Virus record (IMG/VR): IMGVR_UViG_3300010362_000002
Span: 1 to 52,321 of that record
Direction: 5' to 3' (one strand)
Source: a virus
Taxonomy: Duplodnaviria > Caudoviricetes
DNA: 52,321 bases
The notes below the pieces were generated by a model. That model did not search any database, had not been told where the DNA came from, and saw only the letters and a list, made by a program, of their open reading frames with translations. A program made the translations under genes and the position numbers. Shown here piece by piece: positions 1 through 42,154 of this stretch. Each line of letters begins with the position of its first letter. The stretch's first letter is position 1.

Positions 1-123
1 AAACGGCGCTGATCCGATGGCCCGATCAACGCCGTTGCTTTTACGAACTACTTGGGAGCTTTCAACTATTCTACCGGCTTCCGGCTACCGGAGAATTTCG
101 GGTCTTTCGATATCGACATTTGC
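1..123. repeat. Terminal direct repeat, identical to 52199-52321 (assembly overlap of a circular/complete genome)
   Basis: aaacggcgctgatcc...tcgacatttgc is present at both ends of the window. Confidence 0.97.
2..42 (+). terminator. Probable intrinsic terminator between the convergent rightward accessory operon and ORF 85-477
   Basis: Imperfect stem AACGGCGcTGATC...GATCAaCGCCGTT followed by GCTTTT, just after the last + gene (stop at 52194). Confidence 0.6.
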
Positions 124-477
124 AGAGCGGGCATCGATTTCCGCGCCGTCCTGCGTAGTGCTCACTTGGCACACGATGAGAGACCAGACCAGTTCGCGCG
201 AGTAGTTTTCGGCTTGGACTTTGGTCTCTAATAAGTAGCGCGACGATCCGATCTCTCTGAACTTTTTGTATTTGGACCAGTAGGCCGTGTGCGGTGCCCG
301 CAACCGGGCATCGGTCGTGAGCCTGCAGACAAGCTCGGCCTTCTGCTGCAGCGTGAGCGCTCGCGGCGCGGCTGCGGGCTCTGCGGGCGGCACGTACGCT
401 GGCCTATCGCGATCCGACCATAAAATCCAGATCCCCGCCGTGGTCAACAGGCCGCAGGTCCAAAGTATTCGTCTCAA
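85..477 (-). CDS. Membrane-anchored/exported protein, possible moron or superinfection-exclusion factor
   Basis: TTG start with upstream GAGGAG SD; N-terminal hydrophobic segment, Pro/Ala linker, small domain with two Cys; transcribed against the lytic genes. Confidence 0.6.
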   Translation of the reverse strand: MRRILWTCGLLTTAGIWILWSDRDRPAYVPPAEPAAAPRALTLQQKAELVCRLTTDARLRAPHTAYWSKYKKFREIGSSRYLLETKVQAENYSRELVWSLIVCQVSTTQDGAEIDARSANVDIERPEILR

Positions 478-737: not shown

Positions 738-838
738 GTCCACCCCGTTTAACCCCTCCGCTTCACCCCGAGGGTTAAATCCGGGGTTACACGCGGGGTG
801 AAACGTGGGGTCAATTCACCCCTGGTTTAACCCCTCCG
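738..838. repeat. Array A of (G/A)GGGT(T/G/C)AAA-like motifs in both orientations, 12-bp period
   Basis: AGGGTT 771, GGGGTT 783, GGGGTG 795, GGGGTC 807; inverted copies TTTAACCCC 748, CTTCACCCC 761, ATTCACCCC 814, TTTAACCCC 826. Confidence 0.85.
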
Positions 839-861
839 CGACCTACCTAAAAAACCGCCTA

Positions 862-876
862 ACTAACTTAGTTAGT
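862..876. promoter_or_regulatory. 15-bp palindrome ACTAACT-T-AGTTAGT, candidate operator upstream of the 929 island
   Basis: Perfect 7-bp arms seen directly, about 50 bp upstream of ATG 929. Confidence 0.5.
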
Positions 877-928
877 CGTGCCACTTACTAACACCCGTAC
901 ATACCCTATGTCCTAATCTTGCCTTGAT

Positions 929-1699
929 ATGTCCACTAACAAGCAAGGTAAGCAACGGAGTAAGCCGAACGGCTATCTCTTATTTGAGAATTCGGAGATT
1001 GTAGTTATCGCGACGGGGTTTGTTCGCAAATCGGCTAACCCCAAAACCGGCGACATGATCCAAGTGTGGATACTTGCTCGCGATGTAAACCCCGTGCGAG
1101 CGATCAAGATTGGTGCGGACGTTAAGGTTTGTCTGGATTGTAAGCATCGCGGTAAAGGCGGAAAGAAGCGTACCTGTTATGTACGCGTGGCCAATGCGCC
1201 TTTGGGCGTTTGGAAGGCGTACAAACGCGGCTTATACCCGTTCCTTCCTATTAGTGAGTACTCGCAAGCTTTTGAACGTCGCAAGGTTCGTCGTAAGGTT
1301 CGCTTCGGTGCCTATGGCGAACCTGTTCTAATTCCTGCGGCTATAGTCGCGGAACTATCGCGCGTATCCGATGGATGGACCGGATACACGCATCAATGGG
1401 CTAATCCAGCATTCGCGGAGTACCGCCAATGGCTCATGGCCAGTGTTGACTCTCAGAGCGAGTACGTTGCAGCAAAGGCCGATGGGTGGCGTACGTTTCG
1501 CGTACGCACATCGGTTGAATCGCCCTTAAACGCTCGCGAGATTGTTTGCCCTGCGAGCGATGAGGCTGGTAAGCGAACCACGTGCGAACGTTGCAAGCTG
1601 TGCAGTGGGACCTACCAAGGTGATGGGCGTAAGGACATTGCAATCGTGGTGCATGGCAGTGGTACCAAGCAGTTCAAATTAATTCAGTTAGGAGCATAG
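929..1699 (+). CDS. Cys-rich putative Fe-S protein (phage GP88/DUF7227-like, possibly radical-SAM-related)
   Basis: CxxC-x11-CY (CLDCKHRGKGGKKRTCY), VRFGAYGEP, GWTGYTHQW, LMASVDS, GWRTFRV, and C-terminal CP-x11-CxxCxxC; family recalled from motifs, not searched. Confidence 0.6.
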   Translation: MSTNKQGKQRSKPNGYLLFENSEIVVIATGFVRKSANPKTGDMIQVWILARDVNPVRAIKIGADVKVCLDCKHRGKGGKKRTCYVRVANAPLGVWKAYKRGLYPFLPISEYSQAFERRKVRRKVRFGAYGEPVLIPAAIVAELSRVSDGWTGYTHQWANPAFAEYRQWLMASVDSQSEYVAAKADGWRTFRVRTSVESPLNAREIVCPASDEAGKRTTCERCKLCSGTYQGDGRKDIAIVVHGSGTKQFKLIQLGA

Positions 1700-1711
1700 G
1701 AGTAACAACCA

Positions 1712-1921
1712 ATGAAGCTTAGAGCAAGAATTACCAGACGGACGGAAACACCGACACACAAGTCTATACACTTCGCGTTTCCGAAGGGTGTTAGACCCTT
1801 CATTCGGGAATCGATCCTAATCAGGAATATTGGACCCCGTCCGTACTCCGAAGCAACTATGTGGAGCGCGACCGGCGAAACACTCGTGATGTACTCCGCA
1901 CGTAAGAAAGGGAATCGCTAA
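1712..1921 (+). CDS. Small basic hypothetical protein
   Basis: AGGAG SD; closely follows 929-1699. Confidence 0.7.
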   Translation: MKLRARITRRTETPTHKSIHFAFPKGVRPFIRESILIRNIGPRPYSEATMWSATGETLVMYSARKKGNR

Positions 1922-1923
1922 CC

Positions 1924-2184
1924 ATGAAATACGTAATCGAGATTTACCACAGAGAACACGGACAGTTCCGTCAGGAGTATGACACGCGCTATGACGCTGC
2001 ACTGGATCTAGATCGCGTGCGTGCGCGATACCTGGAAACGGACGGATGGGTCATCGAATGCCGCTTGGAGGTTCTTAGGCGGTACACGTTCCTGGAAGCA
2101 CAGGAAACGCGCTATAGCGCTCAAGACGTGTTCAAACGGTTGTTCGACATGCATATGGAATATTCAGAATCGAGGGTCAAGTAA
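1924..2184 (+). CDS. Small hypothetical protein
   Basis: AAGGGA SD; tight operon spacing. Confidence 0.7.
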   Translation: MKYVIEIYHREHGQFRQEYDTRYDAALDLDRVRARYLETDGWVIECRLEVLRRYTFLEAQETRYSAQDVFKRLFDMHMEYSESRVK

Positions 2185-2185
2185 C

Positions 2186-2335
2186 ATGCTGCGTTTTGTC
2201 GAAGTTATCAAAGCTATCCAGCAGGGCTTACACGTGCTGAAACCGTTGCTCTTCGAAATGGTCCTGTTTCTGTGGGCCGTCATCGAAATGGGCAAGTTTA
2301 TTTGGTCCATTGCGCTTGGTGGCCATGCTGGATAA
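2186..2335 (+). CDS. 49-aa hydrophobic peptide (MLRFVEVIK...FEMVLFLWAVIEMGKFIWSIALGGHAG)
   Basis: ATG 2 nt after the previous stop, GAGGG SD, hydrophobic stretch, followed by a terminator. Confidence 0.6.
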   Translation: MLRFVEVIKAIQQGLHVLKPLLFEMVLFLWAVIEMGKFIWSIALGGHAG

Positions 2336-2360
2336 CTAACCCTCACTTCCCGCGCGATCT

Positions 2361-2405
2361 AAACCCCCCTGCTTAGGTTGAACCTACAGGGGGGTTTCTA
2401 TTTTT
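2361..2405. terminator. Strong intrinsic terminator, potentially bidirectional
   Basis: AAACCCCCCTG-ct-TAGGTT-g-AACCTA-CAGGGGGGTTT followed by CTATTTTT on +; the minus strand reads ...CAGGGGGGTTTAG. Confidence 0.85.
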
Positions 2406-2406
2406 A

Positions 2407-2664
2407 CCCTGCCGCCGTCCTGGTGCCGTCCCTGCCGCCGTCCTGGTGCCGTCCCTGCCGCCGTCCTGGTGCCGTCCTGGTGCCGTCCCTGCGTGCCGTC
2501 CTGGTGCCGTCCCTGCCGCCGTCCTGGTGCCGTCCCTGCGTGCCGTCCTGCCACCGTCCCTGCCACCGTCCCTGCCGCCGTCCCTGGTGCCGTCCCTGGT
2601 GCCGTCCCTGCGTGCCGTCCTGGTGCCGTCCTGGTGCCGTCCCTGCGTGCCGTCCCTGCGTGCC
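2407..2664. repeat. Tandem array of about 21 units CCGTCC(C)TG + GTG/CCG/CGTG/CCA (11-13 bp); + strand almost A-free
   Basis: Parsed directly; only two A residues in about 255 nt; minus strand reads CAGG(G)ACGG in every unit. Confidence 0.95.
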
Positions 2665-2828
2665 TAGAACCCGCTACCAGGGAGGTCGAATGTAACCCCG
2701 CCTTTGTATAAGTGAGGTTTATAAGATGGGCTAAAACCGCGTTTAAAGCCCTGAATTCGCACGACTTAACAGCGTTTATGTAAACCATATAGCACCAACG
2801 CAAGGTGTATTGCTCCCATCGAACGGCG

Positions 2829-2972
2829 TGGGATAAACGGGGGTTACACACCGAAATTTCACCTCGGGGTTAAACCGAGGGTTAAATGTGGGGTCAATTC
2901 ACCTCGATTTAACCCCTCGATTTATCCCCGGATTTAACCCTCGCTTTTCGGCCCGGTTTTCCGAGGGTGAAA
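2829..2972. repeat. Array B of (G/A)GGGT(T/G/C)AAA-like motifs, related to array A
   Basis: GGGGTT 2866, AGGGTT 2878, GGGGTC 2890; inverted TTTAACCCC 2908, TTTATCCCC 2921, TTTAACCCT 2933; GTGGGGTCAATTCACC identical at 805-820 and 2888-2903. Confidence 0.85.
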
Positions 2973-2993
2973 TCTGGACCGCGTCATTCCCGC

Positions 2994-3006
2994 TAAGTTG
3001 TTGATT
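2994..3006 (-). promoter_or_regulatory. IHF binding site next to cos
   Basis: Reverse complement AATCAACAACTTA matches the IHF consensus WATCAANNNNTTR. Confidence 0.7.
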
Positions 3007-3010
3007 CTAT

Positions 3011-3057
3011 GGGTCCTTCCCGGGGTGAAACGGTCGGCGGGCTTCGCGCCCGCACCG
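3011..3057. other. Candidate cos site: cosQ-like GGGTCCT (3011-3017) and cosN-like dyad GCGGGC-ttcgc-GCCCGC (3037-3053)
   Basis: GGGTCCT equals lambda cosQ; dyad centre is about 28 bp downstream, similar to lambda spacing; upstream of TerS and a gpA-type TerL. Confidence 0.7.
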
Positions 3058-3182
3058 CTTGCCTAGCCACAGACACTTAAAGCCTTAAATTTCAGCGAGT
3101 TACAGGCTAGTCAAGAGAAATTTTCGGGGGTTTGTGGCGGGTGCCTGGAAATGTTGTGTATAGTCAACAGCCAAGTGTTGTG

Positions 3183-3212
3183 TTGACACAACATAGACGA
3201 CTAACACATAAT
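3183..3212 (+). promoter_or_regulatory. Sigma70-type promoter upstream of the terminase operon, overlapped by a palindromic operator
   Basis: TTGACA(3183)-18 bp-CATAAT(3207); TGTTGTGT-tg-ACACAACA (3176-3193) covers the -35. Confidence 0.65.
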
Positions 3213-3237
3213 CGGTGCTCAAAGGCCCTGGAATCGC

Positions 3238-3270
3238 AAAAAAGAAGGCCGGTCAACGACTTGACCGGCC
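3238..3270 (-). terminator. Perfect 10-bp hairpin preceded by an A-run (minus-strand terminator or leader structure)
   Basis: AAAAAAGAA-GGCCGGTCAA-cgac-TTGACCGGCC. Confidence 0.55.
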
Positions 3271-3334
3271 CACGAAGCACTAGAAAGCTAACTCGAATAC
3301 AACCGAGCCGAGTGTATCACGGTTTTTGGTTGCC

Positions 3335-3907
3335 ATGAGCTTTCTGGGTGTCAATGCTTACGCACGTCATCGAGGTGTAGCTCCGCGTTCTGTGCAGTAT
3401 GCCATCGAGCGCGGGCGCATTTCGAAGGACCCGAAGTCCGGTCTCATCAATGTCGAAGAGGCCGACATCGCTTGGGAGAAGACCGGCGGCAAACCCAGGA
3501 AGCAGCGCTCCGGTGAAGACGAGCAGAAGGCTGCCTCGACCCGTCGCGCGACCTGGGCGAAGAAGCAGCAGGCCGAAGCGCCGGTAATTCAGGTGGACGC
3601 CGTTGGCGAGCATCCGGCGGCGTCGGTGCGCAGCAGTTACAACGAGAGCCGCAGCGCCAGGGAGTTCTACGACGCGGAGATCAAGCGGCTGGAGCTTGAA
3701 CAGAAGAAGGGCAAGCTCGTGGACGCGCAGAAGGTTTACGACGAGGCGTTCAACACTTACCGCGCGTACCGCGATGCGATGCTCAACATCCCCGACCGCA
3801 TCGCTTCGCAGATCGCGACCGAGACCGACGCGCGGGTCGTGCATGACCTCCTCATCGAGGAGATCCGCAAGACTCTCGATGCGTTCATCAAGTCGAGGGC
3901 CGCATGA
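3335..3907 (+). CDS. terS: Terminase small subunit (Nu1-like)
   Basis: N-terminal wHTH (AYARHRGVAPRSVQYAIERGRI), coiled coil KRLELEQKKGKLVD, MLNIPDRIA; ATGA overlap with TerL. Confidence 0.85.
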   Translation: MSFLGVNAYARHRGVAPRSVQYAIERGRISKDPKSGLINVEEADIAWEKTGGKPRKQRSGEDEQKAASTRRATWAKKQQAEAPVIQVDAVGEHPAASVRSSYNESRSAREFYDAEIKRLELEQKKGKLVDAQKVYDEAFNTYRAYRDAMLNIPDRIASQIATETDARVVHDLLIEEIRKTLDAFIKSRAA

Positions 3908-5838
3908 CGCCGGTGCTCGACGACGCCAGCGTCTACGTACGGGGCGCACGTGCCGGTGCGAGGCCCGATCCGCCGCTACTGGTGAGCGAGTGGGCCGACG
4001 GGCATCGCATGTTGACCACGCGAAGCTCGCCCGAGCCGGGGCCATGGCGCACGTCGCGCACGCCGTACCTCAAAGCCATCATGGACGCGCTTTCGCCGTC
4101 GGCGCGGGCCGAGATGGTTGTGTTCATGGCTGGCAGTCAGGTGGGCAAGACGGAGAGCGGCAACAACTGGATCGGCTACAACATCGAGTTCGCGCCAGGG
4201 CCGATGCTCATGGTGCAGCCGACTACGGAGATGGCCAAGCGCAACTCGAAGCAGCGCATCGCTCCGCTGATCGAAGACTGCCCCGGTCTGAAAGCGCTGG
4301 TGAAAGACTCGCGGTCGCGCGACTCGGGAAACACCATCCTGGCGAAGGAATTTCCCGGCGGCATCCTGGTGATGACCGGCGCGAACTCAGCCAAGGGCTT
4401 GCGCTCGATGCCCTGCCGGTATCTGTTCCTCGACGAGGTGGATGGATACCTGGGCGATGTGGATGGGGAAGGCGAGCCGTGTGCACTGGCGATTGCCAGG
4501 ACGACCAACTTCCCGCGCCGGAAGATCTTCATCACCTCGACGCCGACCATCGAAGGGCGCTCGCGGATCGCGCGGTTCTTCGAGACGAGCGATCAGTCCT
4601 ACTTCTTCGTGCCGTGCCCCAAGTGCCAAGTCAAGCAGACGCTGCGCTTCGAGCAACTCAACTGGAAGAAGGGCGACCCCGATTCGGCGCGGTACATCTG
4701 CGAGGCCTGCCAGTTCCCCATCCCGAACCACATGAAGAACACGATTCTGGGATTGGGCGAATGGCGGCCCACGGCGGAAGGGGACGGCAAGGTTCGCGGC
4801 TTCCATCTGAACTCGCTTTACTCGCCGGTGGGCTGGCTCTCCTGGGCGCAGATCGCGCAGAAGCACGAGGAGTGCGGCAGGGACGTGGAGAAGCTCCAGG
4901 TCTTCTGGAACACCATCCTCGGGCTGCCCTGGCAGGACGAAGGGGAGGTGCCAGATGTAGACCGCCTCTACGAGCGCCGCGAGGGCTACCAGATCGGCGT
5001 CGTCCCTCGCGGCGGCCTCCTGCTCACCGCAGGCGCGGACGTGCAGACGCGCCGCATCGAGGTCGAGATCGTGGCGTGGGGCCGCGACAAGCAATCCTGG
5101 TCGGTCGATTACCGCGTGTTCGAAGGCGACACCTCGCAGACGGCGGTGTACGAGCAACTGGCGAAGCTTCTCGACGAGGACTTCCCCACGGCCTACGGCC
5201 AGCCGGTGCGGATCGCGCGGATGGCCATCGACACCGGCTTCAATACCTTGCCGGTATATGACTTCGTGCGTAAGATGTCCGCCGCCCGCGTGATGGGCGT
5301 CAAGGGCGATCCGGTGCGCACGCCGTCGTTCGTCGGCACACCGTCATTGATCGAGCATGGGCCGCAGGGCAGGGCTCTGCGCTACGGCGTCCGTCTGTGG
5401 CCGGTCAACACCAGCATTGGCAAGGAAGAGCTTTACCGCTGGCTGCGCACCTCGGTGCCGGATCACGACAAAGGCGAGGCGTGGCCGGTGGGCTTCTGCC
5501 ACTTCCCGCAGTACTCCAAGGAATACTTCGAGCAGATCTGCGCCGAGCGCCTCGTGTGGAAGACCGTCGCCGGTTACCGCAAAAGTTCCTGGGAAAAGAT
5601 TCGCGACCGCAACGAAGCGCTGGACTGCCGGGTGTACGCGCGGGCCGCAGCCGCCGCGCTGCGCATCGAAGCCTACACGTACGCCAAGTGGGCCGACCTG
5701 GAGAAGGCGCTCATCGTGGACCAGCCTTCGCAGATCGTGCCGCCGTCGGCGCGAAAGCCGGTGGATAACGCGGAAGCGCCGCGCACACCTACGCCGAAGT
5801 TCACCACTTTCAAAGCCGGGGAGGGATTCCTGGACTGA
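3904..5838 (+). CDS. terL: Terminase large subunit, lambda gpA family
   Basis: VSEWAD, GPWRTSRTPY, Walker A SQVGKT, YLFLDEVDGY, STPT, AGADVQ, RNEALDCRVYA. Confidence 0.97.
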   Translation: MTPVLDDASVYVRGARAGARPDPPLLVSEWADGHRMLTTRSSPEPGPWRTSRTPYLKAIMDALSPSARAEMVVFMAGSQVGKTESGNNWIGYNIEFAPGPMLMVQPTTEMAKRNSKQRIAPLIEDCPGLKALVKDSRSRDSGNTILAKEFPGGILVMTGANSAKGLRSMPCRYLFLDEVDGYLGDVDGEGEPCALAIARTTNFPRRKIFITSTPTIEGRSRIARFFETSDQSYFFVPCPKCQVKQTLRFEQLNWKKGDPDSARYICEACQFPIPNHMKNTILGLGEWRPTAEGDGKVRGFHLNSLYSPVGWLSWAQIAQKHEECGRDVEKLQVFWNTILGLPWQDEGEVPDVDRLYERREGYQIGVVPRGGLLLTAGADVQTRRIEVEIVAWGRDKQSWSVDYRVFEGDTSQTAVYEQLAKLLDEDFPTAYGQPVRIARMAIDTGFNTLPVYDFVRKMSAARVMGVKGDPVRTPSFVGTPSLIEHGPQGRALRYGVRLWPVNTSIGKEELYRWLRTSVPDHDKGEAWPVGFCHFPQYSKEYFEQICAERLVWKTVAGYRKSSWEKIRDRNEALDCRVYARAAAAALRIEAYTYAKWADLEKALIVDQPSQIVPPSARKPVDNAEAPRTPTPKFTTFKAGEGFLD

Positions 5839-6118: not shown

Positions 6119-7731
6119 TCTCGCTCGGCATCGGCGACCGGAAGAGTTGGTCGGATGCGCTCAAGGCTCAGTGTTATAACAACGACACGGCTTATGCGGG
6201 CGCTTCCCACCGGCGTAAGCAACTTAGTAACTGGATTCCGCGCCTTGCTCCTGCGGACGCGGACTTACTGCCTGAGTTAGGCGACTTAGTAGCACGCTCG
6301 CGCGACTTAGACCGCAACAACGGTGTCGCCGCCGGTTCGTTTCAGGCGCTGCAGGACAACGTCGTCGGCATCGGGTTGCGCCTCGCGGCCACGCCGGATT
6401 ACCGGGCGCTCGGCAAAGACATCACCTGGGCGGAAGAGTGGTCGCGCGACGTGGAAAGCCAGTGGAAAACCTGGGCAGAGTCGTGCGCGGCGGATGCCGC
6501 CTACCGGCAGAACTTCAACGGGCTCACGCAGTTGGTTTTCCGCAGCGCGTTGCAGAACGGCGAAGCGCTGGCGCTGCCCTTGTGGATGGAGCGCACCAAC
6601 ACCACGTGGCGCACCTGCCTGCAGTTGATCGATACGGATCGGTTGTCAAATCCCGGCACGTCGCCGGTGCCGACCCGGAACCTGCGCGGCGGCATCCAGA
6701 TCGACGACTACGGCAAGCCGCTCGCGTATTACATCCAGGATCAGCCCAAGGATTACGGCTTGCTCGCGCGTGGGATCGGCCTCGCGTCGTCGGCGGGCAC
6801 CTGGACGCGCGTACCGGCTGAGACCGAGTGGGGCCGGAAGCGGGTGATCCACATCTTCGAGCAGACGCGGGTGGACCAGAGCCGGGGGGCTCCGATCCTC
6901 GCGCCGGTCATCGAGCAGTTCCGAATGCTCGACGCCTACCAGCGTACCGAGCTTCAGTCGGCCATCGTGAACGCGATTGTCGCCGGTGTGATCGAGACGC
7001 CCATGGACCCGGCGGCGCTCGCGGAACTGATCGGCACCGATCCCAACAAGTACCTCACCGGCAAGAACGACTACCGCGTGCAACTCGAAGGCGGCAGTCT
7101 GGTGCCGCTCTATCCCGGCGACAAGCTCACGCCGTACACGCCGTCGAGGCCGGTGGGGACTTTCCCGGCGTTCGTCGAGACCATCCTGCGGCAGATCGGC
7201 GGCGCTCTCGGGCTGCCGTATGAACTGGTCGTCAAGGACTTCTCGAAGTCGAACTATTCGAGCGCCCGCGCGGCGCTGCTCGAAGCGTGGCGCTTCTTTA
7301 TCAACCGGCGCGTGTGGCTCGCGACCTACTGGTGCCAGCCGGTGTACGAACTGTGGCTCGAAGAAGCGGTTTCTTCCGGTCAGGTCGAGGCCGACTTCAG
7401 CTACGAGACGCGGGCGTACTACTGCCGCGCGAAATGGATCGGCCCCGGACGCGGATGGATCGATCCGGTGAAGGAAGCGCAGGCCGCGCAGATCCGCATC
7501 GAGAATTACGTCTCGACGCTCGAAGTCGAGTGCGCCGAGCAGGGTCTCGACTGGAACGAAGTGCTCGAACAGCGTGCGCTCGAACGCGAACGCATGAAGG
7601 AACTGGACCTCCTGCCCGCAACGCCGCAACCCGCAGCCGCCGCCGCCGCCCCGGACACGACCCCGTCAGACGGCGGCGACGGCTCCGGCCAGGAGGATCA
7701 AGTGCCGCCCGCACAGGAGAAAGCCGCATGA
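6115..7731 (+). CDS. Portal protein, lambda gpB family
   Basis: LVARSRDLDRNN, NVVGIGL, QSRG.P.LAPV, DFSKSNYSSARAALLE, WIGPGRGWIDPVKE. Confidence 0.97.
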   Translation: MISLGIGDRKSWSDALKAQCYNNDTAYAGASHRRKQLSNWIPRLAPADADLLPELGDLVARSRDLDRNNGVAAGSFQALQDNVVGIGLRLAATPDYRALGKDITWAEEWSRDVESQWKTWAESCAADAAYRQNFNGLTQLVFRSALQNGEALALPLWMERTNTTWRTCLQLIDTDRLSNPGTSPVPTRNLRGGIQIDDYGKPLAYYIQDQPKDYGLLARGIGLASSAGTWTRVPAETEWGRKRVIHIFEQTRVDQSRGAPILAPVIEQFRMLDAYQRTELQSAIVNAIVAGVIETPMDPAALAELIGTDPNKYLTGKNDYRVQLEGGSLVPLYPGDKLTPYTPSRPVGTFPAFVETILRQIGGALGLPYELVVKDFSKSNYSSARAALLEAWRFFINRRVWLATYWCQPVYELWLEEAVSSGQVEADFSYETRAYYCRAKWIGPGRGWIDPVKEAQAAQIRIENYVSTLEVECAEQGLDWNEVLEQRALERERMKELDLLPATPQPAAAAAAPDTTPSDGGDGSGQEDQVPPAQEKAA

Positions 7732-14580: not shown

Positions 14581-14942
14581 CCGGCGGCGGCTGGCCGGAA
14601 GCGCCGTCGCCGCGTTTCATCTTTCACCGGATGATGCGGCGCAGCCGCCTATGCCCCGGAGCGCACGAGTGCCCCGAGGTCTTGAACGCACAACCGCTCG
14701 CGACCGCGCAAGCAGCCGTTCCCTGCGCGGAATGTCCCGCCGAGTTACTGGGGGAATATTTGGGGTCGCCTTCCGGCCAGCGTCTGTCAGTGGTGATCGA
14801 TCTGGACTTCGCGCTCCAGTCGGGCTTCCACCTGACTCTCCATGACGTGAGCTATCGCGAGTTCCGGCTCTTGCGGATTTTGGCGGAGGAGCGGCAGAAG
14901 TTCGAGATCGAGGAGATTCGAGGGAAACGAGATGGCCAATAA
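14577..14942 (+). CDS. Tail chaperone gpT-like extension reached by -1 frameshift (gpGT)
   Basis: The -1 frame from 14577 (TTA ACC GGC GGC GGC TGG...) is open into ORF 14631-14942, just before the TMP. Confidence 0.75.
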   Translation, partial: LTGGGWPEAPSPRFIFHRMMRRSRLCPGAHECPEVLNAQPLATAQAAVPCAECPAELLGEYLGSPSGQRLSVVIDLDFALQSGFHLTLHDVSYREFRLLRILAEERQKFEIEEIRGKRDGQ

Positions 14943-17900
14943 AATCTACATCCAACTCGAATTTTCCGCCGACGGCGCAGAGAAGTCCATCGATCAACTC
15001 AACCAGAAGATCAAGAATATCGGCGACACCACCGAGAAATCCACCAAGAAGGCCACCGCGAGCGTCACCGGCTTCACGGATTCACTCTTCAAAGCACTGC
15101 TCGGCGCGAACGTGGCGCAGAGCGGCATCACGCAGTTGGCCCGCACGCTCGCCGACTTCACCAAGGAGGCGGTCAAGAGCGCCGCGCAGTTTGAGGAATT
15201 GGAGGGATCGAACCGCTCTCTCGCGGCGACCGCCAATATCAGCACGCAGGCGATGAATCTGTTGAAGGCGCAATTGCGCGACGTGAATCTCGAAGGGGTC
15301 GAGGCTTCCAAGATCATCAATGAGTCTCTGCTCGAAGGCATCACCGATCCCAAACAGATCGCGGCCATCGGCAAACTCGCCCAGAGCATCGAGCGGATCA
15401 CCGGAAGGGACGCGGTCGAAAATGCGCAGGCGATTTCTCTTTCCGTCGCGAGCGGCAACACGCGCCGGTTGCGGGAACTCGGCCTGATCGTGGATCTAAA
15501 TAATGCCGAAACGGCGAGAGAAAACCAACTCAAACGTTTTCTGACCGACCGCGAACTGATCGAACTCCGATTGACCAAAGTCATCAGTGATTTCAACCAG
15601 AAGGTAAAAGAGGGCGACCTCCCCACGCAGACGCTCCTCCAGGGGTGGCGGGACTTTCACGATACGTTCGAGGAGTTCAAACGCAAATTCGGCGACGCGC
15701 TCGTCGGCCCTCTGACTGAAGCCCTGAAACTTGCGGATCAACTCCTGCAAACCATCAACACGATCCAGACGGCACAGAGAGGCCTCACGTTGATTCCTGG
15801 CGCGGTCTTCGGCTCGAAGACGCAGCCGCCGACCAGCGGCATCTTGAGCTTCCTGGGAGACAAGCTGATCAATTGGGCCGGAGATACCCTGGATAAACTG
15901 CTTCCGCCGCCGCCGCCCATCAAAGAAAAACCGCCGTATGGCCCGGAGACGCCGCCGCCGGAACCGCCTCCCACCAAGGAATTGCTGGAGCAGCGCAAGC
16001 TCGCTAAGGAAGCCGCTGAGGCCGAGATCCAAGCGGAACAGCAACTCCAGAACGAGCGCAAGAGCACACTGGTGGCGATTGAAGCCGTGAACTCCGCGCA
16101 GACTGCGTCCATCGCCAAGCAAGCCAAGAGTTTCGAGAACTCCACCGAAGCCAGCAAAGAGACGCTGTACCTGTGGGTCGCCATCGAGGCCCAGCGAAGG
16201 CGTGGGATCGAGCAGTTGATCAAAGAGGGCGAGCAGATCAAGCGCAACCGGGCGCTTACCGTGGATGAGTTCGGCAACCGGCGCTACAAGCCGCTCTCGC
16301 CCGGTTTCATTCGTGATGTCGATTTGCAGACCCTTGAGAAAATCCGCCAACTCAACATCCGGCTGGATGCCGAATTGAACGAGAACTTCGCGGAGATCGC
16401 GGAGGCCCGCGTCAAGATCATTTCGAATCTGATCGATCAGCTTTGGATCGAACCCGCGCGGCAGGCGCTGCAGATCTGGGACGAGTTGCGGCAGGACACC
16501 GAGAAGCTCGCCGACCTCCGCTATCAGCAGAGCGTACAAGGGATCGAGCAGCGGACCCAGGCCGAACTGGAATCGCTGCAGGCCGTCGAGGTGGCCACGC
16601 TCAAGCAGGCCGTGATCCTCGAAGAGCGGAAGCGGGACATCACCATCAGAGGCCTGCGGGAACGGAACACGCTGCAGCAAGAACAAATCGATGTCGAGAC
16701 CGAGCGCGAGGTGCAGAAGGAGTTCGGCAGGCTGCGGCTCGCGGGCGTGACCGACGAGAGGATCTACCAGCAACGCCGGGAGTCGCTCGAAAAGCTCGGG
16801 CAACTGCAGAAGGACATCGCGCAGCAGGTGACCGATGCCGCGATCCGCGAGGCCGCGATCCGCGCGAATGCGGAAGTGCAGCAGGCCATCCTCGCGCAGT
16901 CCCGGCAGACCTTCGACAAAATCAAGGACTTCACCAGCGGGATCTTCGACGCCTTCACGCAGAAGTCCACCTCGGTGTTCAAGGCCATCGCGGATGTTTT
17001 CAAAAACACCTTCATCAACGCGCTGAAAGAAATCGTCACCAGCCAGTTCGCCATCGCGCTATACAAACTTCTCGGCTACGGGACGGCATACTATCAGGGA
17101 CCGGGCCAGCCGGTCTCGTTCACCCGGCAGGCACCGGGCACCGGGTACACCGGCCTGGGCTTTGGCCGCAGCATCCTCGGCGCGGCGTTCGGCTATGGCG
17201 GCACTGGAGTAGCACTGCCCGCGCCGGTGGGCGTGAGCGACACCACGTTCAAGGCCATCACCGAGGGCGGCGGGACTGGAGAGGCGAACCGCGAGTACGA
17301 CGACCGTTACTATGCGGCCACCGGCCAGCTTCCACCGGGCGGGCTCGCGCCGGTGCCGTACCCGTCGCTCGCGAGCCTGGGCATCCGCTCGATCACGGCG
17401 GCACCGGCCTACAATCCTTCGCAACTCGCGCGGGCTCGCGAAGCCTTCAACGTCGGCAAGCCGGTCACGGTGATCAGGAACGGCAGCACTCAGGTGATCC
17501 CGTGGGCACAGGCGACCGCGACGGAGAAGCTCCGGTCGGTGCTGCGCTCTTCCGGCTTCCGCTCGCTCGCGGCATCGGTCGGCATCACGGCAGCGCTCGG
17601 CGGGTTGTCGCGCTCGGGCCTGGGCGCTCTGGTGCAGACCGGCCTGGGCGGCGCACTCGCGGGTTATGGCTTCGCGAAGACGCTCGGCCTCACCGGCGCG
17701 GAGGGACTGGTCGCCGGTCTGGGATTGGGCGTAGCGGCGGCGGGCCTGAAGATCGGCGGCACCTTGGGCGACATCGCCACGGTCGGCGGCGCGGCCCTGA
17801 CCGGATACACGGCGGGCCATCTGATCGGCCTCACGCCAGCGGGCGGCGCACTGCTCGGTGCCGGTGCCGGTCTCTTCGCGGCGGGCCTGCGGCGCGGCGG

Positions 17901-18552
17901 CGCGGTCGGCGTGGCCGAAACTACACTGGGCGGCGCGGCGGCTGGTGCCGCCATCGGCAGCATCGTGCCGGGTATTGGAACCGCCGTCGGCGCAGCCGTC
18001 GGTGCAGTCGTGGGCCTCGGCGCGGGCATCGCGCGATTGTTTATCAAGACCCTGGACGAGAAGGTGCGGGCGGCGGTCAAGAACGTTTACGGCATCGACA
18101 TCCCCGACGCAAAGATTCGGCAGCAGATCGTGGATATCGCCAAGCAGCGCTACGGCGGCAACATCGACGTGGCCGTGCGCTCGCAGGAGGTCCAGGAGAT
18201 CGTGCGCCTGTATGCGCTCGCGACCGGGCAGCAGGCGCGGCTCCCGCGACCGCTCTATCCGGTGGCCATCGCGCAGCAGGGAGGGAGCCTGCAGACGCAG
18301 CCGGTGTACTCGAATGGCCAGCTTGTCCAGAACCCGTACACCGGCGTGACGACCTCGCAGTGGCAGACCGCCGGTCTCTATCTGCAGATCAACCCGGCGC
18401 AAGCGAATGCGCTCTTCGAGGGCCGCGTGGTGAACGTGCTCGAAGGCAACCCGGCATCGGTGTCGCAGGCGACCGCGAGCGGCGCGGCCTCGGGGAACGG
18501 GCGTACGGCGCTGCGCTCGGCGCTCTTCGATCCGCTCACGGTGAACGCCTAG
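14932..18552 (+). CDS. Tape measure protein
   Basis: 1206 aa, helical/coiled-coil with Gly/Ala-rich hydrophobic C-terminal third; follows the G/GT chaperones. Confidence 0.92.
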   Translation: MANKIYIQLEFSADGAEKSIDQLNQKIKNIGDTTEKSTKKATASVTGFTDSLFKALLGANVAQSGITQLARTLADFTKEAVKSAAQFEELEGSNRSLAATANISTQAMNLLKAQLRDVNLEGVEASKIINESLLEGITDPKQIAAIGKLAQSIERITGRDAVENAQAISLSVASGNTRRLRELGLIVDLNNAETARENQLKRFLTDRELIELRLTKVISDFNQKVKEGDLPTQTLLQGWRDFHDTFEEFKRKFGDALVGPLTEALKLADQLLQTINTIQTAQRGLTLIPGAVFGSKTQPPTSGILSFLGDKLINWAGDTLDKLLPPPPPIKEKPPYGPETPPPEPPPTKELLEQRKLAKEAAEAEIQAEQQLQNERKSTLVAIEAVNSAQTASIAKQAKSFENSTEASKETLYLWVAIEAQRRRGIEQLIKEGEQIKRNRALTVDEFGNRRYKPLSPGFIRDVDLQTLEKIRQLNIRLDAELNENFAEIAEARVKIISNLIDQLWIEPARQALQIWDELRQDTEKLADLRYQQSVQGIEQRTQAELESLQAVEVATLKQAVILEERKRDITIRGLRERNTLQQEQIDVETEREVQKEFGRLRLAGVTDERIYQQRRESLEKLGQLQKDIAQQVTDAAIREAAIRANAEVQQAILAQSRQTFDKIKDFTSGIFDAFTQKSTSVFKAIADVFKNTFINALKEIVTSQFAIALYKLLGYGTAYYQGPGQPVSFTRQAPGTGYTGLGFGRSILGAAFGYGGTGVALPAPVGVSDTTFKAITEGGGTGEANREYDDRYYAATGQLPPGGLAPVPYPSLASLGIRSITAAPAYNPSQLARAREAFNVGKPVTVIRNGSTQVIPWAQATATEKLRSVLRSSGFRSLAASVGITAALGGLSRSGLGALVQTGLGGALAGYGFAKTLGLTGAEGLVAGLGLGVAAAGLKIGGTLGDIATVGGAALTGYTAGHLIGLTPAGGALLGAGAGLFAAGLRRGGAVGVAETTLGGAAAGAAIGSIVPGIGTAVGAAVGAVVGLGAGIARLFIKTLDEKVRAAVKNVYGIDIPDAKIRQQIVDIAKQRYGGNIDVAVRSQEVQEIVRLYALATGQQARLPRPLYPVAIAQQGGSLQTQPVYSNGQLVQNPYTGVTTSQWQTAGLYLQINPAQANALFEGRVVNVLEGNPASVSQATASGAASGNGRTALRSALFDPLTVNA

Positions 18553-18947
18553 TGCCGAACCACGTCCAACCCGCGAACCCGACGGTGGTGCTCCCCAATT
18601 CGCTTTCGAGCGCGTTCCAGGAAGAGCAGCGCATCGAAGCTCTACTCAATGCTTATCAGAGCGGATTCTCCACACGAGCCGCGCTCGCCATCAACCCGCG
18701 CCGGTACTGGAAGCTCACCAAGCAATTGACCGAAGCGCAGTGGACCACGCTGCGCAATTTCTATAAGGCGAATCTGGTTAACCCGTTCTGGTTTTATAAC
18801 CCGCGCGAGACTGCGCCGCCTTTCTCATATGATCCTACCGGCGGCGCATCGGCGGGCCGTTACGCGGTGGTCTTCGACGGGCAGTGGACCGAGGACATCC
18901 TGATCCCCAGGCGCAACGCCGCGTTCGGCCTGCGCGAGGTGGCCTGA
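18552..18947 (+). CDS. Distal tail protein (gpM/Dit-like)
   Basis: GTG overlapping the TMP stop; R.W.L...L..FY......PFWF.NP pattern. Confidence 0.7.
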   Translation: MPNHVQPANPTVVLPNSLSSAFQEEQRIEALLNAYQSGFSTRAALAINPRRYWKLTKQLTEAQWTTLRNFYKANLVNPFWFYNPRETAPPFSYDPTGGASAGRYAVVFDGQWTEDILIPRRNAAFGLREVA

Positions 18948-22960: not shown

Positions 22961-22964
22961 CGAT

Positions 22965-23054
22965 ATGGAAATTGGAGAGGTTGTCGTTTTGGGGGTCGCT
23001 ACGATCATCGTGCTTCTGGTGATTTATTGGCTGTTGTTGACGCGTCAGAAATAA
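22965..23054 (+). CDS. 29-aa single-TM peptide MEIGEVVVLGVATIIVLLVIYWLLLTRQK (not in ORF track)
   Basis: Exactly fills the gap between two tail genes; AGGA SD. Confidence 0.6.
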   Translation: MEIGEVVVLGVATIIVLLVIYWLLLTRQK

Positions 23055-23057
23055 GAT

Positions 23058-26000: not shown

Positions 26001-26297
26001 GGCGGGATCACCGGCGCGTCGTTGTCCATTCGAGGCCATTCGCAGGCGATGATCACCAGTGCGGGTGCCTACTACGATGGCACCGGCGTGCAGGTTATCA
26101 CTTTTGACGGGCAGTTCTGCGGCAAAGGCGGAATCTATACGAATGGCCAGATCGATACCGGAGGAACGGCGTCGATAGGCGCGGGCGGGGGCTTCAGGGC
26201 TTACGGGAGTACCGGGGTCACTGGGCCGACTACTTTCACTACAGCGGATGGCAAGACCGTCACCGTGCGCGGGGGCATTATTATTTCGGTGGTTTAA
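23058..26297 (+). CDS. Tail fibre/spike protein
   Basis: Ig/FN3-like N-terminal part, Gly-rich VI..xGQFxGxGG repeats, C-terminal TTFTTADGKTVTVRGGII. Confidence 0.75.
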   Translation: MPVGNWIFEITSSVPGGGQPYVPPDAPPVTIGTAEVEEIYSGVFEVRVNWTKNAAATASNFTGVGVFLEDPDMSETALAPMDDTVTMDDTTQMAGKWIPEHVTDTAESPATFRIAGKTIERKIRAYLQAYNKVVSSQITRANAPNPTPNIQVTIPAARDSYQSGQEYTWLVTNPTVDVVEDFDNPNGPKYQLHYGYTPPDDTIPLPPGLTTFGGVQIVFEYPDDNNRRASERFLAVNHPETWVSEIYDAQTQTFNVYFCSVDINGRSNTPVRGVTPMVEVSIKYPPDGQQTVPPVTGFTLTNPRHEWQPDGTLWATVTANWTNPDVVRFGAVEFWRVGVVPPRKFDRSSVSPLPLRVIDWPTSPEAWTVAAISVGRDGKLADDPNNLSAATPTAIWNIGPPGTGGQGHEYTPQVTISGATVDTTQQLNSDGVVMMSHTIKGWINSTDNSFGGVSIARVVKDQDPNGATTNVQWWDAPKNATSIITDWEPAPAAVSWDFYFVARDQQGKRNTIVMGYPAAGTTPKVTVNFTPMAGDVLASRLPKDWFSEDEFSWPSAPGDDKFKVDKVISAKIYVGSILRVGGGTTPDTGTPDKPGYVPGTNPSFGNSQNGQIAVYNSSNVLRAWMGEQNNQGTPDIPSPHPVFGGWFAELYVGGDNPTNAPLYATQAGVVIVGGFDVQGSRYPYISIRNKSGIEVGRMGARVGQGQVGNESTIEGAWFREFAYGGQSFADWRMLARMDPSNPQGSTVEMRNISKFQIDYMANYPSATNPTNAAMTLLFGYDAFVADVATSTYYKFPGISMTRTGTGHQCILINRGIVLNMPSGTITSPVRAGAFVTYNGQQTGNDAGTFWTVLSMNSPTTHNANVELASGRDGGVGGSHFTLWDGSLTPVVNFNVDETGNVTVRGSFTLNSDMIATQYSVKGSPNIPVITTGGQFNGSGGVNTTGAISSSSTVTGSAIWANGRNVINSSWQFVGDGGVDSAGGITGASLSIRGHSQAMITSAGAYYDGTGVQVITFDGQFCGKGGIYTNGQIDTGGTASIGAGGGFRAYGSTGVTGPTTFTTADGKTVTVRGGIIISVV

Positions 26298-42074: not shown

Positions 42075-42154
42075 CGGTGTCTTGCGCGATGGGCCGTAGA
42101 AACCCATCCCCCCGGAAAGGCCCCTCAGACTTCTGCACTAAGGAGATTCAAACG

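Follow-up and report, generated by a model that had tools for sequence, protein, structure and literature searches.

Gene content of the cos-proximal region

The window, i.e., the whole stretch of 52,321 nt that was analyzed, represents the complete genome (52.2 kb) of a lambda-like cos phage whose TerL is of the gpA type. The nearest genomic relatives of this uncultured phage lie in Acidobacteriota MAG contigs, and its genome has a GC content of 0.606. A repeat search found no long terminal repeat in the window, and the 123-nt overlap of the window ends is an assembly overlap located far from cos. One public run (X1), possibly the sample behind the window assembly, contains the phage, and the contig ends considered below were taken from the Logan contigs of this run. 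Window ORFs were scanned against PHROGs (67 ORFs) and Pfam (49 ORFs). The following features were identified (strand is given where assigned):

743–840, array A: eight 9-bp units (GGGKTNAMW and its complement) with 11–13 nt spacing
859–875, 17-bp palindrome CTAACTAA-C-TTAGTTAG between array A and orf1
929–1699, plus strand, orf1 (256 aa): Cys-rich protein of the virus-specific DUF7227/GP88 superfamily
1712–1921, plus strand, orf2 (69 aa): no family
1924–2184, plus strand, orf3 (86 aa): no family
2186–2335, plus strand, orf4 (49 aa): small hydrophobic protein
2356–2405, plus strand, intrinsic terminator: hairpin at about 2356–2400, then the T-run UUUCUAUUUUU
2407–2665, C-rich tandem array with a period of 11–12, also 23–24 and 47
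2690–2830, AT-richer spacer (GC 0.454) with one motif unit at 2691–2699
2830–3030, array B: about 11 units between 2830 and 2975 with 11–13 nt spacing
2994–3006, minus strand, IHF consensus site AATCAACAACTTA
3011–3020, GGGTCCTTCC box (hereafter GGGTCCTT box), 20–29 nt left of the top-strand nick
3037–3053, cosN: palindrome GCGGGC-TTCGC-GCCCGC and contig ends
3152–3212, plus strand, sigma-70-type promoter: TTGACA-18-CATAAT at 3183–3212, 11 of 12 positions matching
3246–3271, minus strand, hairpin with a T-run, preceded by an A-run on the plus strand, between the promoter and terS
3335–3907, plus strand, terS (phrog_57, E 3.2e-23)
3904–5838, plus strand, gpA-type terL (GpA_ATPase, 3.9e-88; GpA_nuclease, 7.7e-85)

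The four genes form an autonomous low-GC cassette between a leftward backbone gene and cosN. As stated in the initial annotation, they are tightly coupled (gaps of 12, 2, and 1 nt) and followed by a strong terminator, whose hairpin (−24.7 kcal/mol, z −3.7) was missed by a simple consensus scan. Since the upstream neighbor (85–477) lies on the opposite strand and this terminator closes the block, the island is a self-contained unit, again in line with the earlier description. The GC content of the island is 0.51 vs. 0.606 for the genome. The suggestion that A/T-ending codons set the four genes apart from the rest of the genome holds: their GC3 is 0.53–0.61, whereas 23 other genes have a median of 0.74 and a minimum of 0.60. 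The contrast is greatest with respect to structural genes; some early genes come close.

The palindrome CTAACTAACTTAGTTAG at 859–875 is unique in the window, with 0 occurrences expected, and is a candidate regulatory site of the cassette. Its presence agrees with the palindromic operator reported earlier, the word "operator" being an assumption. A consensus scan revealed no sigma-70 promoter at 840–928, upstream of orf1.

The orf1 product matches phrog_2554 (E 3.8e-67) and, at 18.7 bits, scores below the 27-bit cut-off for DUF7227. Of its 5871 homologues, none of the 120 listed has any name besides "hypothetical protein". Residues C68, C71, C83, C207, C219, C222, and C225 are invariant. The structural model (pLDDT 90.9) is matched in BFVD by DUF7227/GP88 proteins and has weak radical-SAM matches (Z up to 5.1), so its fold possibly includes a radical-SAM-like partial barrel. 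No homologue of orf2 was found in the loci of the relatives, and orf4 has a homologue in L102 (2434–2577, 63% identical). An 81-aa ORF, similar by eye, occupies the place of orf3 in L102. None of the cargo proteins matched a defence or other functional family in Pfam, PHROGs, or the phage and defence libraries.

The tandem array (2407–2664) contains 21.8 copies of a period of 12 and is composed of C (45%), G (30%), T (24%), and A (1.5% over 2401–2667). The array called A-free in the initial annotation is thus present, although not strictly devoid of A; its A-free runs reach 146 and 100 nt, the next longest in the window being 67 nt. Since the spacing between units is irregular, the array is considered non-coding. 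Its RNA was no less structured than shuffles in six of the seven segments tested.

Two arrays of a common motif

The motif GGGKTNAMW has 21 matches in the window vs. 6.55 ± 2.68 expected, a number reached by none of 100 shuffles, and 16 of the 21 matches fall within 748–834 or 2691–3030. The units lie 11–13 nt apart and converge on GGGGTCAATTCACC, so that the phased arrays A and B described earlier are well founded. The units of array A are ordered R R F F F F R R around GGGGTCAATTCACCCC, and an exact 15-nt direct repeat, GTTTAACCCCTCCGC, bounds the array (747–761 and 825–839). Seven of these units are strict matches at 748–834, and the eighth, TTCACCCC at 761–769, was recognized by eye. Array B units converge on GGGGTCAATTCACCTC, and the last of them, GGGGTGAAA at 3022–3030, adjoins cosN. 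The two arrays have 65–70 nt in common at 71–79% identity, in both direct and inverted orientation. The IHF consensus WATCAANNNNTTR has two matches in the whole window vs. 0.46 expected, and one of them (2994–3006, minus strand) is the site beside cos that had been noticed initially.

Two-part iteron origins are known from P4 (ori/crr) and SPP1 (oriL/oriR). Like these, the phage has two clusters of one short motif kilobases apart and an AT-rich stretch beside one of them. Arrays A and B could accordingly be iterons of a two-part replication origin bound by the initiator encoded at 41993–43060, a possibility that we consider unlikely. The units are short, phased, and present in both orientations beside the AT-richer stretch (GC 0.454) and the IHF site; no iteron cluster occurs in or near the initiator gene, and an exact GGGGTGAAA lies in the intergenic region ahead of the initiator operon (40577–40585, minus strand). 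In L008, which has a different flank motif, the initiator is merely 37–39% identical. Motif clusters were also inspected in five unrelated contigs: in L168 it falls within an O-like initiator gene, in L198 and L212 it directly follows a primase gene, and in L231 an initiator gene is nearby. However, the L231 array also adjoins HNH-terS-terL, the array in L204 has no nearby replication gene, the pattern search behind these unrelated arrays was, as a whole, close to what chance would give, and phage repeat clusters often mark origins regardless of the motif. Moreover, primases and O-like initiators, which belong to different families, would need one common motif, and the initiators of the window and L168 share no more than a weak helix-turn-helix match (E 0.027). 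Finally, unlike in P4 and SPP1, the initiator gene is ~39 kb away from the arrays rather than beside them; the arrays straddle exchangeable cargo and abut cosN.

The cos site and the terS side

The arms of the cos palindrome, GCGGGC and GCCCGC, occupy 3037–3042 and 3048–3053, with the dyad at 3045. Logan contigs of run X1 stop at 3050 and restart at 3040, symmetrically within the palindrome, and overlap by 11 nt (GGCTTCGCGCC) vs. 18–30 nt at five other listed contig junctions. Five of the 80 loci of TerL relatives (L089, L090, L092, L093, and L107, representing three distinct sequences) start precisely at the homologous GGCTTCGCC. The relatives are all metagenome contigs, and contigs alone cannot prove molecule ends. 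The contig ends and the relatives starting at the homologous base bear out the initial placement of cos near 3045, and with it the position of the block as the terminal DNA at cos on the side opposite to terS. We infer nicks at GCG^GGC on both strands (3039/3040 top, 3050/3051 bottom), which would leave the 11-nt overhang GGCTTCGCGCC, probably of the 5′ type. The best-conserved block left of cosN is the GGGTCCTTCC box, whose columns G28, G29, T30, C32, and T33 are invariant in all six sequences.

In lambda, the cos region consists of cosQ, cosN, and cosB, and both the IHF site and the gpNu1 R sites lie between cosN and Nu1. The studied phage resembles lambda in the gpA-type terminase, with terS-terL directly downstream of cos, in the two-fold symmetric nicks within a GC-rich palindrome yielding an overhang of ~11–12 nt, in the IHF consensus site adjoining cosN, and in the conserved box 20–29 nt upstream of the nick, where cosQ lies in lambda. 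In contrast to lambda, the repeated motif units and the IHF site flank cosN on the side facing away from terS, the motif forms a second array 2.1 kb off, past the gene cassette, and the C-rich tandem array lies 375–630 nt from the genome end; no R-site-like repeats were recognized between cosN and terS.

Portal, protease, and major head protein genes follow terL. Judged from its sequence, the promoter at 3183–3212 serves terS and the genes beyond; both of its hexamers are kept in G001. It is overlapped by inverted repeats of the TGTTGTGTATA type, exact copies of which occur in the window at 3152, 30852, and 30908 (minus strand), i.e., elsewhere only in the 30.85–30.92 kb control region beside an HTH regulator.

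The arrays might also serve as operators or enhancers through which a transcription factor controls the divergent promoters left of the cassette and the promoter region at cos, with no role in packaging, entry, or replication. Array A indeed occupies the 450-nt gap between the divergent genes 85–477 (minus strand) and orf1, and the G001 array lies at a similar distance from a leftward gene. Single units are located right of cos near the terS promoter in L005 (4336), L102 (4348), and G001 (5261 and 5327), and in the window one unit lies in the promoter region of the replication operon. Array B, on the other hand, is 3′ of the terminator and the 260-nt array with no gene before cos, the 30.7–31.1 kb control region and the terS promoter use another motif (TGTTGTGTATA), and no regulator gene accompanies the array motif in partial relatives. 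A purely regulatory role is therefore improbable.

Constant frame and variable cargo in related contigs

A common order was found in six contigs (L005, L006, L008, L102, L007, and G001), four of which (G001, L005, L102, and L007) are 5.8–18.9 kb long. As anticipated, relatives have a lead gene, terminator, low-complexity array, motif units, cos, and terS in this order. The opposite prediction, that they would keep the genes and lose the arrays, is contradicted: arrays and their positions are kept better than genes. By comparison of the contigs, the cargo is exchangeable and the surrounding frame is constant in position; this frame comprises upstream motif units, then, past the cassette, a terminator, a C-rich array, an AT-richer spacer, further units, the GGGTCCTT box, and cosN.

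A DUF7227/GP88-type Cys-rich protein is the lead gene in five of the six contigs; in L102 a GP88 gene (E 2.8e-31) replaces orf1. The relative with the closest TerL (G001, 75%) keeps the flank motifs and cos and carries five unrelated ORFs as cargo, one of them DUF7447. Hairpins equivalent to the terminator were read 3′ of the cargo in L005, L006, L007, L008, L102, and G001. C-rich, one-base-poor arrays occupy the equivalent place in L008, L102, L005, and L006, and are absent from G001 and L007.

The array motif occurs upstream of the cargo and around cos in G001, L102, and L007, all of which keep the position of array A. Instead of it, L008 has GGTTACCTC, with three copies in the 57,232-nt record, two upstream of the orf1 homologue and one at cos. 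Further flank-shared elements were found in G001, L102, and L008, whereas no clear motif units were seen upstream of the orf1 homologue in L005. The IHF site within the cos-side units is found, on consensus matches, in two lineages: L008 has a perfect match at the equivalent place (8164), no such match was found in G001, L005, or L007, and the sole match in L102 (3621) is ~490 nt before the cos core. Among the relatives compared, the N-terminal helix-turn-helix of TerS does not co-vary with the array motif: the TerS N-terminus differs in L007 while the motif is unchanged, and TerS is similar in L008 while the motif differs.

A mobile element inserted beside cos, with the arrays as its end repeats (att-like or terminal inverted) or as a duplicated target, could explain why the arrays share 65–70 nt in direct and inverted orientation, the composition foreign to the genome, and the changing cargo. 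In addition, the orf1 cassette occurs in another context in L009, where an orf1 homologue (57% identity) ends ~1.6 kb before an integrase gene and the locus has no match to terS, terL, or portal, and in L007 the island and cos are inverted relative to terS-terL. Nonetheless, no recombinase, transposase, or invertase was found in the island or among the window ORFs scanned against PHROGs (67) and Pfam (49), and the motif also occurs right of cos in relatives. An element carrying its own ends is disfavored because the flanks are constant in position while the cargo changes, and we regard this explanation as highly improbable.

A proposed cos-proximal slot for accessory genes

Since the relatives keep the order while the genes differ, the block at 738–3057 is best described, with a probability of roughly 55%, as a cos-proximal accessory-gene slot in which an exchangeable moron-type cassette sits within a frame of backbone cis-elements. 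Morons are accessory cassettes of lambdoid phages. The cassette resembles them as a discrete unit with its own terminator, a composition unlike the backbone, content that varies among close relatives, and a lead gene also found in another phage context; a moron slot fits because the cargo varies and looks mobile. It differs from morons in that paired motif arrays and a conserved set of cis-elements surround the slot and persist when the cargo changes, that no consensus promoter was found for the cassette, and that the cargo matches no named function.

The motif units are putative sites of one sequence-specific DNA-binding protein, which, given the ~12-nt spacing, would coat one face of the helix. 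On the arrays, this predicted protein could link the left border of the slot to the cos region; the arrays would then be part of an extended nucleoprotein structure of the cos region and would not belong to the cargo. Transcription of the cassette may be kept from reaching cos and the repressor-type terS promoter by the terminator, and perhaps by the tandem array too. Only if packaging starts at cosN and proceeds into terS, as it does in lambda, would the cassette be packaged last and enter the cell first, an order that would suit an accessory function acting early. The packaging polarity could be reversed, since the IHF site and arrays lie opposite to the cosB side of lambda.

The initial annotation had proposed a first-step-transfer module as in T5, i.e., a block that enters first, pauses at the arrays, and delivers pre-early anti-defence or takeover genes before the rest. 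According to a preprint (bioRxiv 10.1101/866236), T5-like phages have a similar layout: IRCspacerIRD and IRD′spacerIRC′ are 1.85–4.26 kb apart around weakly conserved ORFs, and these repeat regions show more conservation than the genes they enclose and contain many direct and inverted repeats. Likewise, in the studied phage, paired repeat regions, partly in inverted order, enclose ~2 kb of genes with little conservation at the genome end, the repeats outlast the genes, direct and inverted repeats are numerous, the cassette is autonomous, and under lambda polarity (cos 3040/3050) the block is at the end ejected first. The hallmarks of T5 are lacking, however. T5, as described there, has terminal repeats of ~10 kb, and its repeats hold paired DnaA boxes; the studied phage has cohesive ends without a long terminal repeat in the window, and no consensus DnaA box occurs in 738–3060, the sole match in the window being at 34910. 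All T5 relatives in that text keep A1/A2, whereas no island gene is universal here. The cargo is not kept in the closest relative, G001, although dedicated entry machinery should be conserved, and the island proteins match no named function, phage and defence libraries included. We thus give the T5-like module little credence and retain the accessory-gene slot as the preferred reading.

The hairpin at 3246–3271, between the terS promoter and terS, is kept in G001. Visual inspection showed similar hairpins in L005, L008, L102, and further TerL relatives.

Genome organization and closest relatives

The first 123 bases of the window are identical to the last 123 (1–123 and 52199–52321), an overlap that the record classes as "direct terminal repeats". 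Since the two ends match exactly over this length, the genome is a circular assembly of 52,198 bases; the 123-nt repeat is an assembly overlap of the circular path, lies among genes at a great distance from cos, and marks no physical end. The terminase genes are followed by those for the portal, the protease/scaffold, and the major head protein, in this order. From 31.6 kb to the end of the window, the ORFs with family matches lie mostly on the plus strand and encode, among others, an HTH_36 initiator, a RecE/YqaJ-like exonuclease, and ParB-like nuclease proteins.

Main features of the window
743–840: array A, units of the motif GGGKTNAMW
929–1699, 1712–1921, 1924–2184, and 2186–2335, plus strand: orf1 to orf4, the genes of the island (738–3057)
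2407–2664: tandem array, period 12, 21.8 copies
2830–3030: array B, units of the same motif
2994–3006, minus strand: IHF site, AATCAACAACTTA
3335–3907: terS (phrog_57, E 3.2e-23)
3904–5838: terL, gpA-type (GpA_ATPase 3.9e-88, GpA_nuclease 7.7e-85)
41993–43060: HTH_36 initiator gene

No integrase was found among the window ORFs scanned (67 against PHROGs, 49 against Pfam), and Rfam and tRNA scans of the window gave no hits. Three very large ORFs (1206, 1358, and 1079 aa; 14932–26297), located between the head genes and the tail fibre, had no PHROGs or Pfam match at the thresholds used.

On the cultured side, the highest TerL identities are 54–55%, observed for Ralstonia prophage fragments and Wolbachia WO, with none above 55%, and a DNA similarity search against cultured phages returned no match. 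The nearest TerL relatives among species-representative genomes (55–66% identity; L294, L321, L358, and L332 among them) are found on MAG contigs of Bryobacteraceae, Solibacteraceae (Solibacter), Sulfopaludibacter, and Terriglobia. These relatives provide a lead toward Acidobacteriota as the host, probably among the Bryobacterales, although binned phage contigs could mislead. As to prophage copies, the cos core, motif clusters, and island genes were absent from all 80 genome loci examined.

The cos site

A candidate cos near 3045, proposed in the initial annotation, is well supported by contig ends, palindrome symmetry, and the starts of relatives' contigs. The stretch is present in a single public run (X1), a soil metagenome that may be the source sample of the window, and was analyzed in its Logan contigs. 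One contig covers 2626–3050 and the next 3040–4254, with one non-matching letter at each tip; they overlap by 11 nt, reading GGCTTCGCGCC, compared with 18–30 nt at the five other junctions listed. The overlap falls within a palindrome formed by GCGGGC (3037–3042) and GCCCGC (3048–3053) around a 5-nt core, with the dyad at 3045. Both predicted nicks would be GCG^GGC, as 3040 and 3050 lie at equal distances on either side of the dyad. That the contig ends overlap, leaving no gap, is as expected if a 5' overhang was filled in; the overhang would be 11 nt long here and 12 nt long in the relatives. The depth of the 2626–3050 contig is 15.3 vs. about 26 elsewhere, a single figure per contig that is silent on polarity or heterogeneity.

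The palindrome is kept in all six aligned sequences. Five of the 80 IMG/VR loci found by TerL (L089, L090, L092, L093, and L107, representing three distinct sequences) start exactly at the homologous GGCTTCGCC, and the L108 contig starts with a related word. The cos core is internal to the contigs of L005/L095, L008/L091, L102, L007, and G001, the relative with the closest TerL, and is located upstream of terS in each of them except L007. L101 and L122 gave approximate hits that fall within or past terL and were taken as chance. A precise cosN and its overhang are thus proposed, on the basis of contigs, for a group of uncultured phages.

As in lambda, a gpNu1/gpA-type terminase operon adjoins cos, and the nicks are placed symmetrically within a two-fold symmetric sequence. 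In lambda, however, cosB (an IHF site and TerS-binding repeats) lies between cosN and terS, whereas here the IHF consensus at 2994–3006 and the motif arrays are on the side of cosN away from terS, and the 285 nt between cosN and terS contain a promoter, TGTTGTGTATA repeats, and a hairpin.

In the related locus L106, a cos-like block, GGGTCCTTTC ... CCCGCACC, was recognized by eye at about 3165–3225, some 1.25 kb upstream of terS, and a proline-rich repetitive ORF lies between the two. Judging from this locus, the phage group may carry cargo on the terS side of cos as well.

Elements of the island

All elements that had been described to the left of cos were recovered, including the IHF site and arrays A and B. 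The window has just two matches to WATCAANNNNTTR (0.46 expected), of which the IHF site is one, and a perfect IHF match is found at the equivalent place in L008. The motif GGGKTNAMW has 21 matches in the window vs. 6.55 ± 2.68 expected, a number reached by no shuffle, and 16 of them fall within 748–834 or 2691–3030. The units are spaced by 11–13 nt, and in both arrays forward and reverse units meet at GGGGTCAATTCACC. The two arrays have 65–70 nt in common at 71–79% identity, in direct and inverted orientation.

The four genes are tightly coupled, with gaps of 12, 2, and 1 nt, and their GC3 of 0.53–0.61 differs from the median of 0.74 in 23 other genes, in agreement with the unusual codon profile noted earlier. 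The strong terminator behind them folds at −24.7 kcal/mol (z −3.7) and is followed by a T-run, and the palindromic operator proposed ahead of them corresponds to a 17-bp palindrome (859–875) that is unique in the window. The description of the tandem array as A-free holds in part: it contains two long stretches without A, of 146 and 100 nt (no other in the window exceeds 67 nt), but A is nearly, not fully, lacking. No sigma-70 consensus promoter was found at 840–928; as the gene upstream of the cassette is on the opposite strand, a promoter of the cassette's own would have to lie within 478–928.

The units of the C-rich tandem array vary by lineage, although, by eye, GCCGTCCTG is common to the window and L008 and CCACAGCCG to L005 and L102. 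All five arrays have 45–56% C on the plus strand and are nearly devoid of A or T. Several functions were considered for the array; none found support, and all but the first were dropped. For a Rho loading site, the RNA folds of seven segments were no weaker than those of shuffles, except in L006 (z +2.6), with the window segments folding at −45 and −40 kcal/mol. For a Chi-like role, the window's unit contains CTGGTG, located on the strand ending 3' at the right end; the role is inconsistent among relatives, the G-rich Chi-like words of L005, L102, and L006 being on the other strand (by eye). GGA words that could make the minus strand a CsrA/RsmA sponge occur in the arrays of the window and L008 and are absent from those of L005, L102, and L006. 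A coding role was discarded in view of the irregular unit spacing (11, 12, 23, or 24) and the lack of a stable reading frame.

Conserved frame and exchangeable cargo

Confirmed relatives of orf1 in IMG/VR number 493, and only 3 of the 80 orf1 loci kept (L005, L007, and L008) also have terS/terL relatives. The predicted order of elements, namely, a lead gene, a terminator, a low-complexity array, cos, and terS, was found in L005 and L008, as well as in L102 with a GP88 gene in the lead position.

Organization of the slot in relatives (TerL identity to the window in brackets)
L005 (68%): orf1 homologue, small ORF, terminator, T-poor C-rich array, TTTCACCCC units, cos core (4118), terS
L008 (64%): orf1 homologue, one gene, terminator, 274-nt A-free array, AT-rich stretch, IHF site (8164), cos core (8209), terS
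L006 (not applicable): orf1 homologue, small ORF, terminator, T-free array, inside which the contig ends
L102 (67%), left part: three GGGGT(T/G)AAA units (1105–1135), GP88 gene (PF17338, E 2.8e-31) replacing orf1
L102, right part: orf4 homologue (63%), more small ORFs, terminator, 121-nt T-free array, scattered units, cos core (4111), terS
G001 (75%, the closest): four-unit array (1960–2009), scattered units and cos core kept; five unrelated ORFs (one DUF7447) in the slot, without a tandem array

Since the frame is kept while the genes differ among relatives, comparison of these sequences identifies the island genes as cargo and the frame as part of the backbone of a small uncultured subgroup. 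The other TerL relatives inspected (L085, L094, L097, L100, and L103) have no such island and carry a ParB-methyltransferase-like gene (by eye) directly upstream of terS.

The best-supported reading of the block is thus a cos-proximal cargo slot of the moron type, embedded in an extended conserved architecture of the cos region. As in morons, the cassette has its own terminator and a composition unlike that of the backbone, its content differs in close relatives, as the other genes in the slot of G001 illustrate, and orf1 has a homologue in another context. The latter (57% identity) is found in a different phage, L009, where it is accompanied by a small ORF and a hairpin, and an integrase gene lies downstream, about 1.6 kb beyond its end. 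The frame marks a site of accessory-gene exchange and hence a good place to seek early-acting or anti-defence genes, the candidates including the very large, uncharacterised DUF7227/GP88 family.

In the 5812-nt contig L007, taken as a whole, terS and terL are on the opposite strand and upstream of the orf1 homologue, so that the island and cos core are inverted relative to the terminase genes as compared with the window; the N-terminus of its TerS also differs. Either a genuine rearrangement or an assembly error could account for this inversion.

A conserved intergenic leader, consisting of GGCCTATGGGGATAGGCCGAAACG, a hairpin, and GGAGATACCCAAAC followed by a start codon, is located after the GP88- or orf1-type gene and before small ORFs in three different phages (L102, 2114–2186 and 2578–2654; L007, about 4612–4684; L009, about 6736–6802). 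The two L102 copies are 98–100% identical, and the leader is absent from the window. It may represent a structured translational element.

The lead gene orf1

The product of orf1, modelled with confidence (pLDDT 90.9), matches phrog_2554 at 3.8e-67 and belongs to a family of 5871 homologues, among which the closer ones (P0002–P0008) are 72–74% identical to it. Its fold and features resemble those of DUF7227/GP88 members. Foldseek against BFVD returned DUF7227 and GP88 proteins (E 1.8e-6 to 2e-4), and in the ESM Atlas clusters matched by orf1 DUF7227/GP88 is assigned to 11–33% of members; the score against Pfam DUF7227 itself is 18.7 bits, under the 27-bit gathering cut-off. A literature search for DUF7227/GP88 found only unrelated "GP88" work.

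Seven cysteines are invariant (C68-x2-C71-x11-C83 and C207-x11-C219-x2-C222-x2-C225), and the name "Fe-S gene" used in the initial annotation is plausible as a putative assignment. The CxxxCxxC cluster motif of radical SAM enzymes is absent from this pattern. The top 17 rows of VIA-align are, by entry titles, mostly radical-SAM enzymes (QueE with Z 5.1, viperin with 4.6), all with Z of at most 5.1, under the noise level stated for the tool. Foldseek against PDB gave nothing at E <= 0.001, and the PDB sequence profile gave just one chance-level row. Neither orf1–orf4 nor eight proteins from the cargo of G001, L102, L008, and L007 had a hit in NCBIfam or PADLOC.

Among the matches listed, a hand tally found eight contigs of at least 20 kb with the orf1 homologue no more than 2 kb from an end. 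The six such ends inspected run into coding DNA and offer no evidence of termini.

Paired flanks and candidate binding proteins

In most lineages examined, the two borders of the slot have elements in common, and these elements are lineage-specific. In four sequences (the window, G001, L102, and L007), the GGGGTGAAA-type motif is present on both sides of the cargo, ahead of it and around cos. L005 has no clear motif units upstream of its orf1 homologue. L008 lacks this motif and has instead GGTTACCTC, with only three copies in the whole 57,232-nt record, two upstream of the orf1 homologue and one at cos; a copy of its pre-cos element TCGTTGATTC...GGACTT is also present at the left border. Further words common to both flanks were found in G001 and L102. 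Such sharing argues, at the sequence level, for one protein or protein set that binds both borders; alternatively, it may result from ongoing exchange between the borders.

The obvious candidate for the binder is TerS, which we consider less probable because its N-terminal HTH and the motif do not vary together across 17 relatives. The next candidate is the replication initiator. Outside arrays A and B, the only exact copy of GGGGTGAAA (40577–40585, minus strand) is found in an AT-rich intergenic region ahead of the operon that begins at 40620 and ends with the initiator gene, which itself lacks iterons. The same motif also forms clusters in phage contigs that are unrelated, and these are associated with replication genes in four of the five contigs examined, which were picked from ten loci with at least four units within 300 nt: the L168 cluster lies inside an O-like initiator gene, those of L198 and L212 just after primase genes, and that of L231 near an initiator. 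However, the pattern search for such clusters is near chance level, and the initiator families found nearby differ from one another. No close relatives of the window's initiator were found in IMG/VR. With respect to iteron origins, phased repeats and an AT-richer stretch are present, and the initiator gene is about 39 kb off. A transcription factor is possible as the binder of array A, which sits between divergent genes, and less likely for array B. Should the arrays turn out to be iterons of an origin or plain operators, what is left of the finding would be a well-mapped moron slot.

Comparison with the T5 first-step-transfer region

The island had initially been interpreted as a T5-like first-entry module, with the arrays acting as entry-pause or protein-loading boundaries. 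The parallel is real: according to bioRxiv 10.1101/866236, T5-like phages have related inverted repeat regions, 1.85–4.26 kb apart, around poorly conserved ORFs at the entering end, and here, too, related repeat regions bracket variable ORFs. The defining T5 features that were checked are lacking. T5 has long direct terminal repeats carrying the pre-early genes, whereas this phage has predicted cohesive ends and, as its sole end repeat, the 123-nt assembly overlap. The paired DnaA boxes of the bracketing T5 repeats have no counterpart, as the box TTWTNCACA has a single match in the window (34910) and none in 738–3060, and no gene is conserved throughout the slot cargo of the relatives. First entry, which would be proposed by analogy, also presupposes a packaging polarity, but the IHF site and arrays are on the side of cosN opposite to lambda's cosB, and in L007 the island and cos are inverted relative to terS–terL.

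Beyond the moron-type slot, a wider reading, which we regard as improbable, would have it that these lambda-like cos phages form a clade, probably infecting Acidobacteriota, that evolved a dedicated "leading-end" architecture. Lineage-specific protein-binding arrays paired across an exchangeable slot would act with the strand-asymmetric C-rich array and the IHF bend beside cosN to hold or protect the first-entering end and to time cargo expression. The architecture would do for a cos phage what the first-step-transfer region does for T5 and the anti-defence leading region for conjugative plasmids. If functional, the frame would constitute a reusable cis-architecture around cos (paired arrays, terminator, one-base-poor C-rich array, and IHF site), of which our literature searches, not aimed directly at this point, found no description.

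The terS promoter region

The 11-mer TGTTGTGTATA has three exact copies in the window, one at the terS promoter (3152–3194 region) and two, inverted, at 30852–30862 and 30908–30918. The inverted copies lie in an AT-rich control region beside a Cro/CI-type HTH gene (30374–30691, minus strand). Two copies with two mismatches overlap the −35 hexamer of the terS promoter, and by hand alignment the exact copies are one base from the DnaA-box consensus. The terS operon and the early region may be under one repressor. Between the terS promoter and terS lies a terminator-like hairpin (3246–3271) with its T-run on the minus strand and without a minus-strand gene upstream; it is kept in G001, and similar hairpins were recognized by eye in L005, L008, L102, and the island-less TerL relatives.
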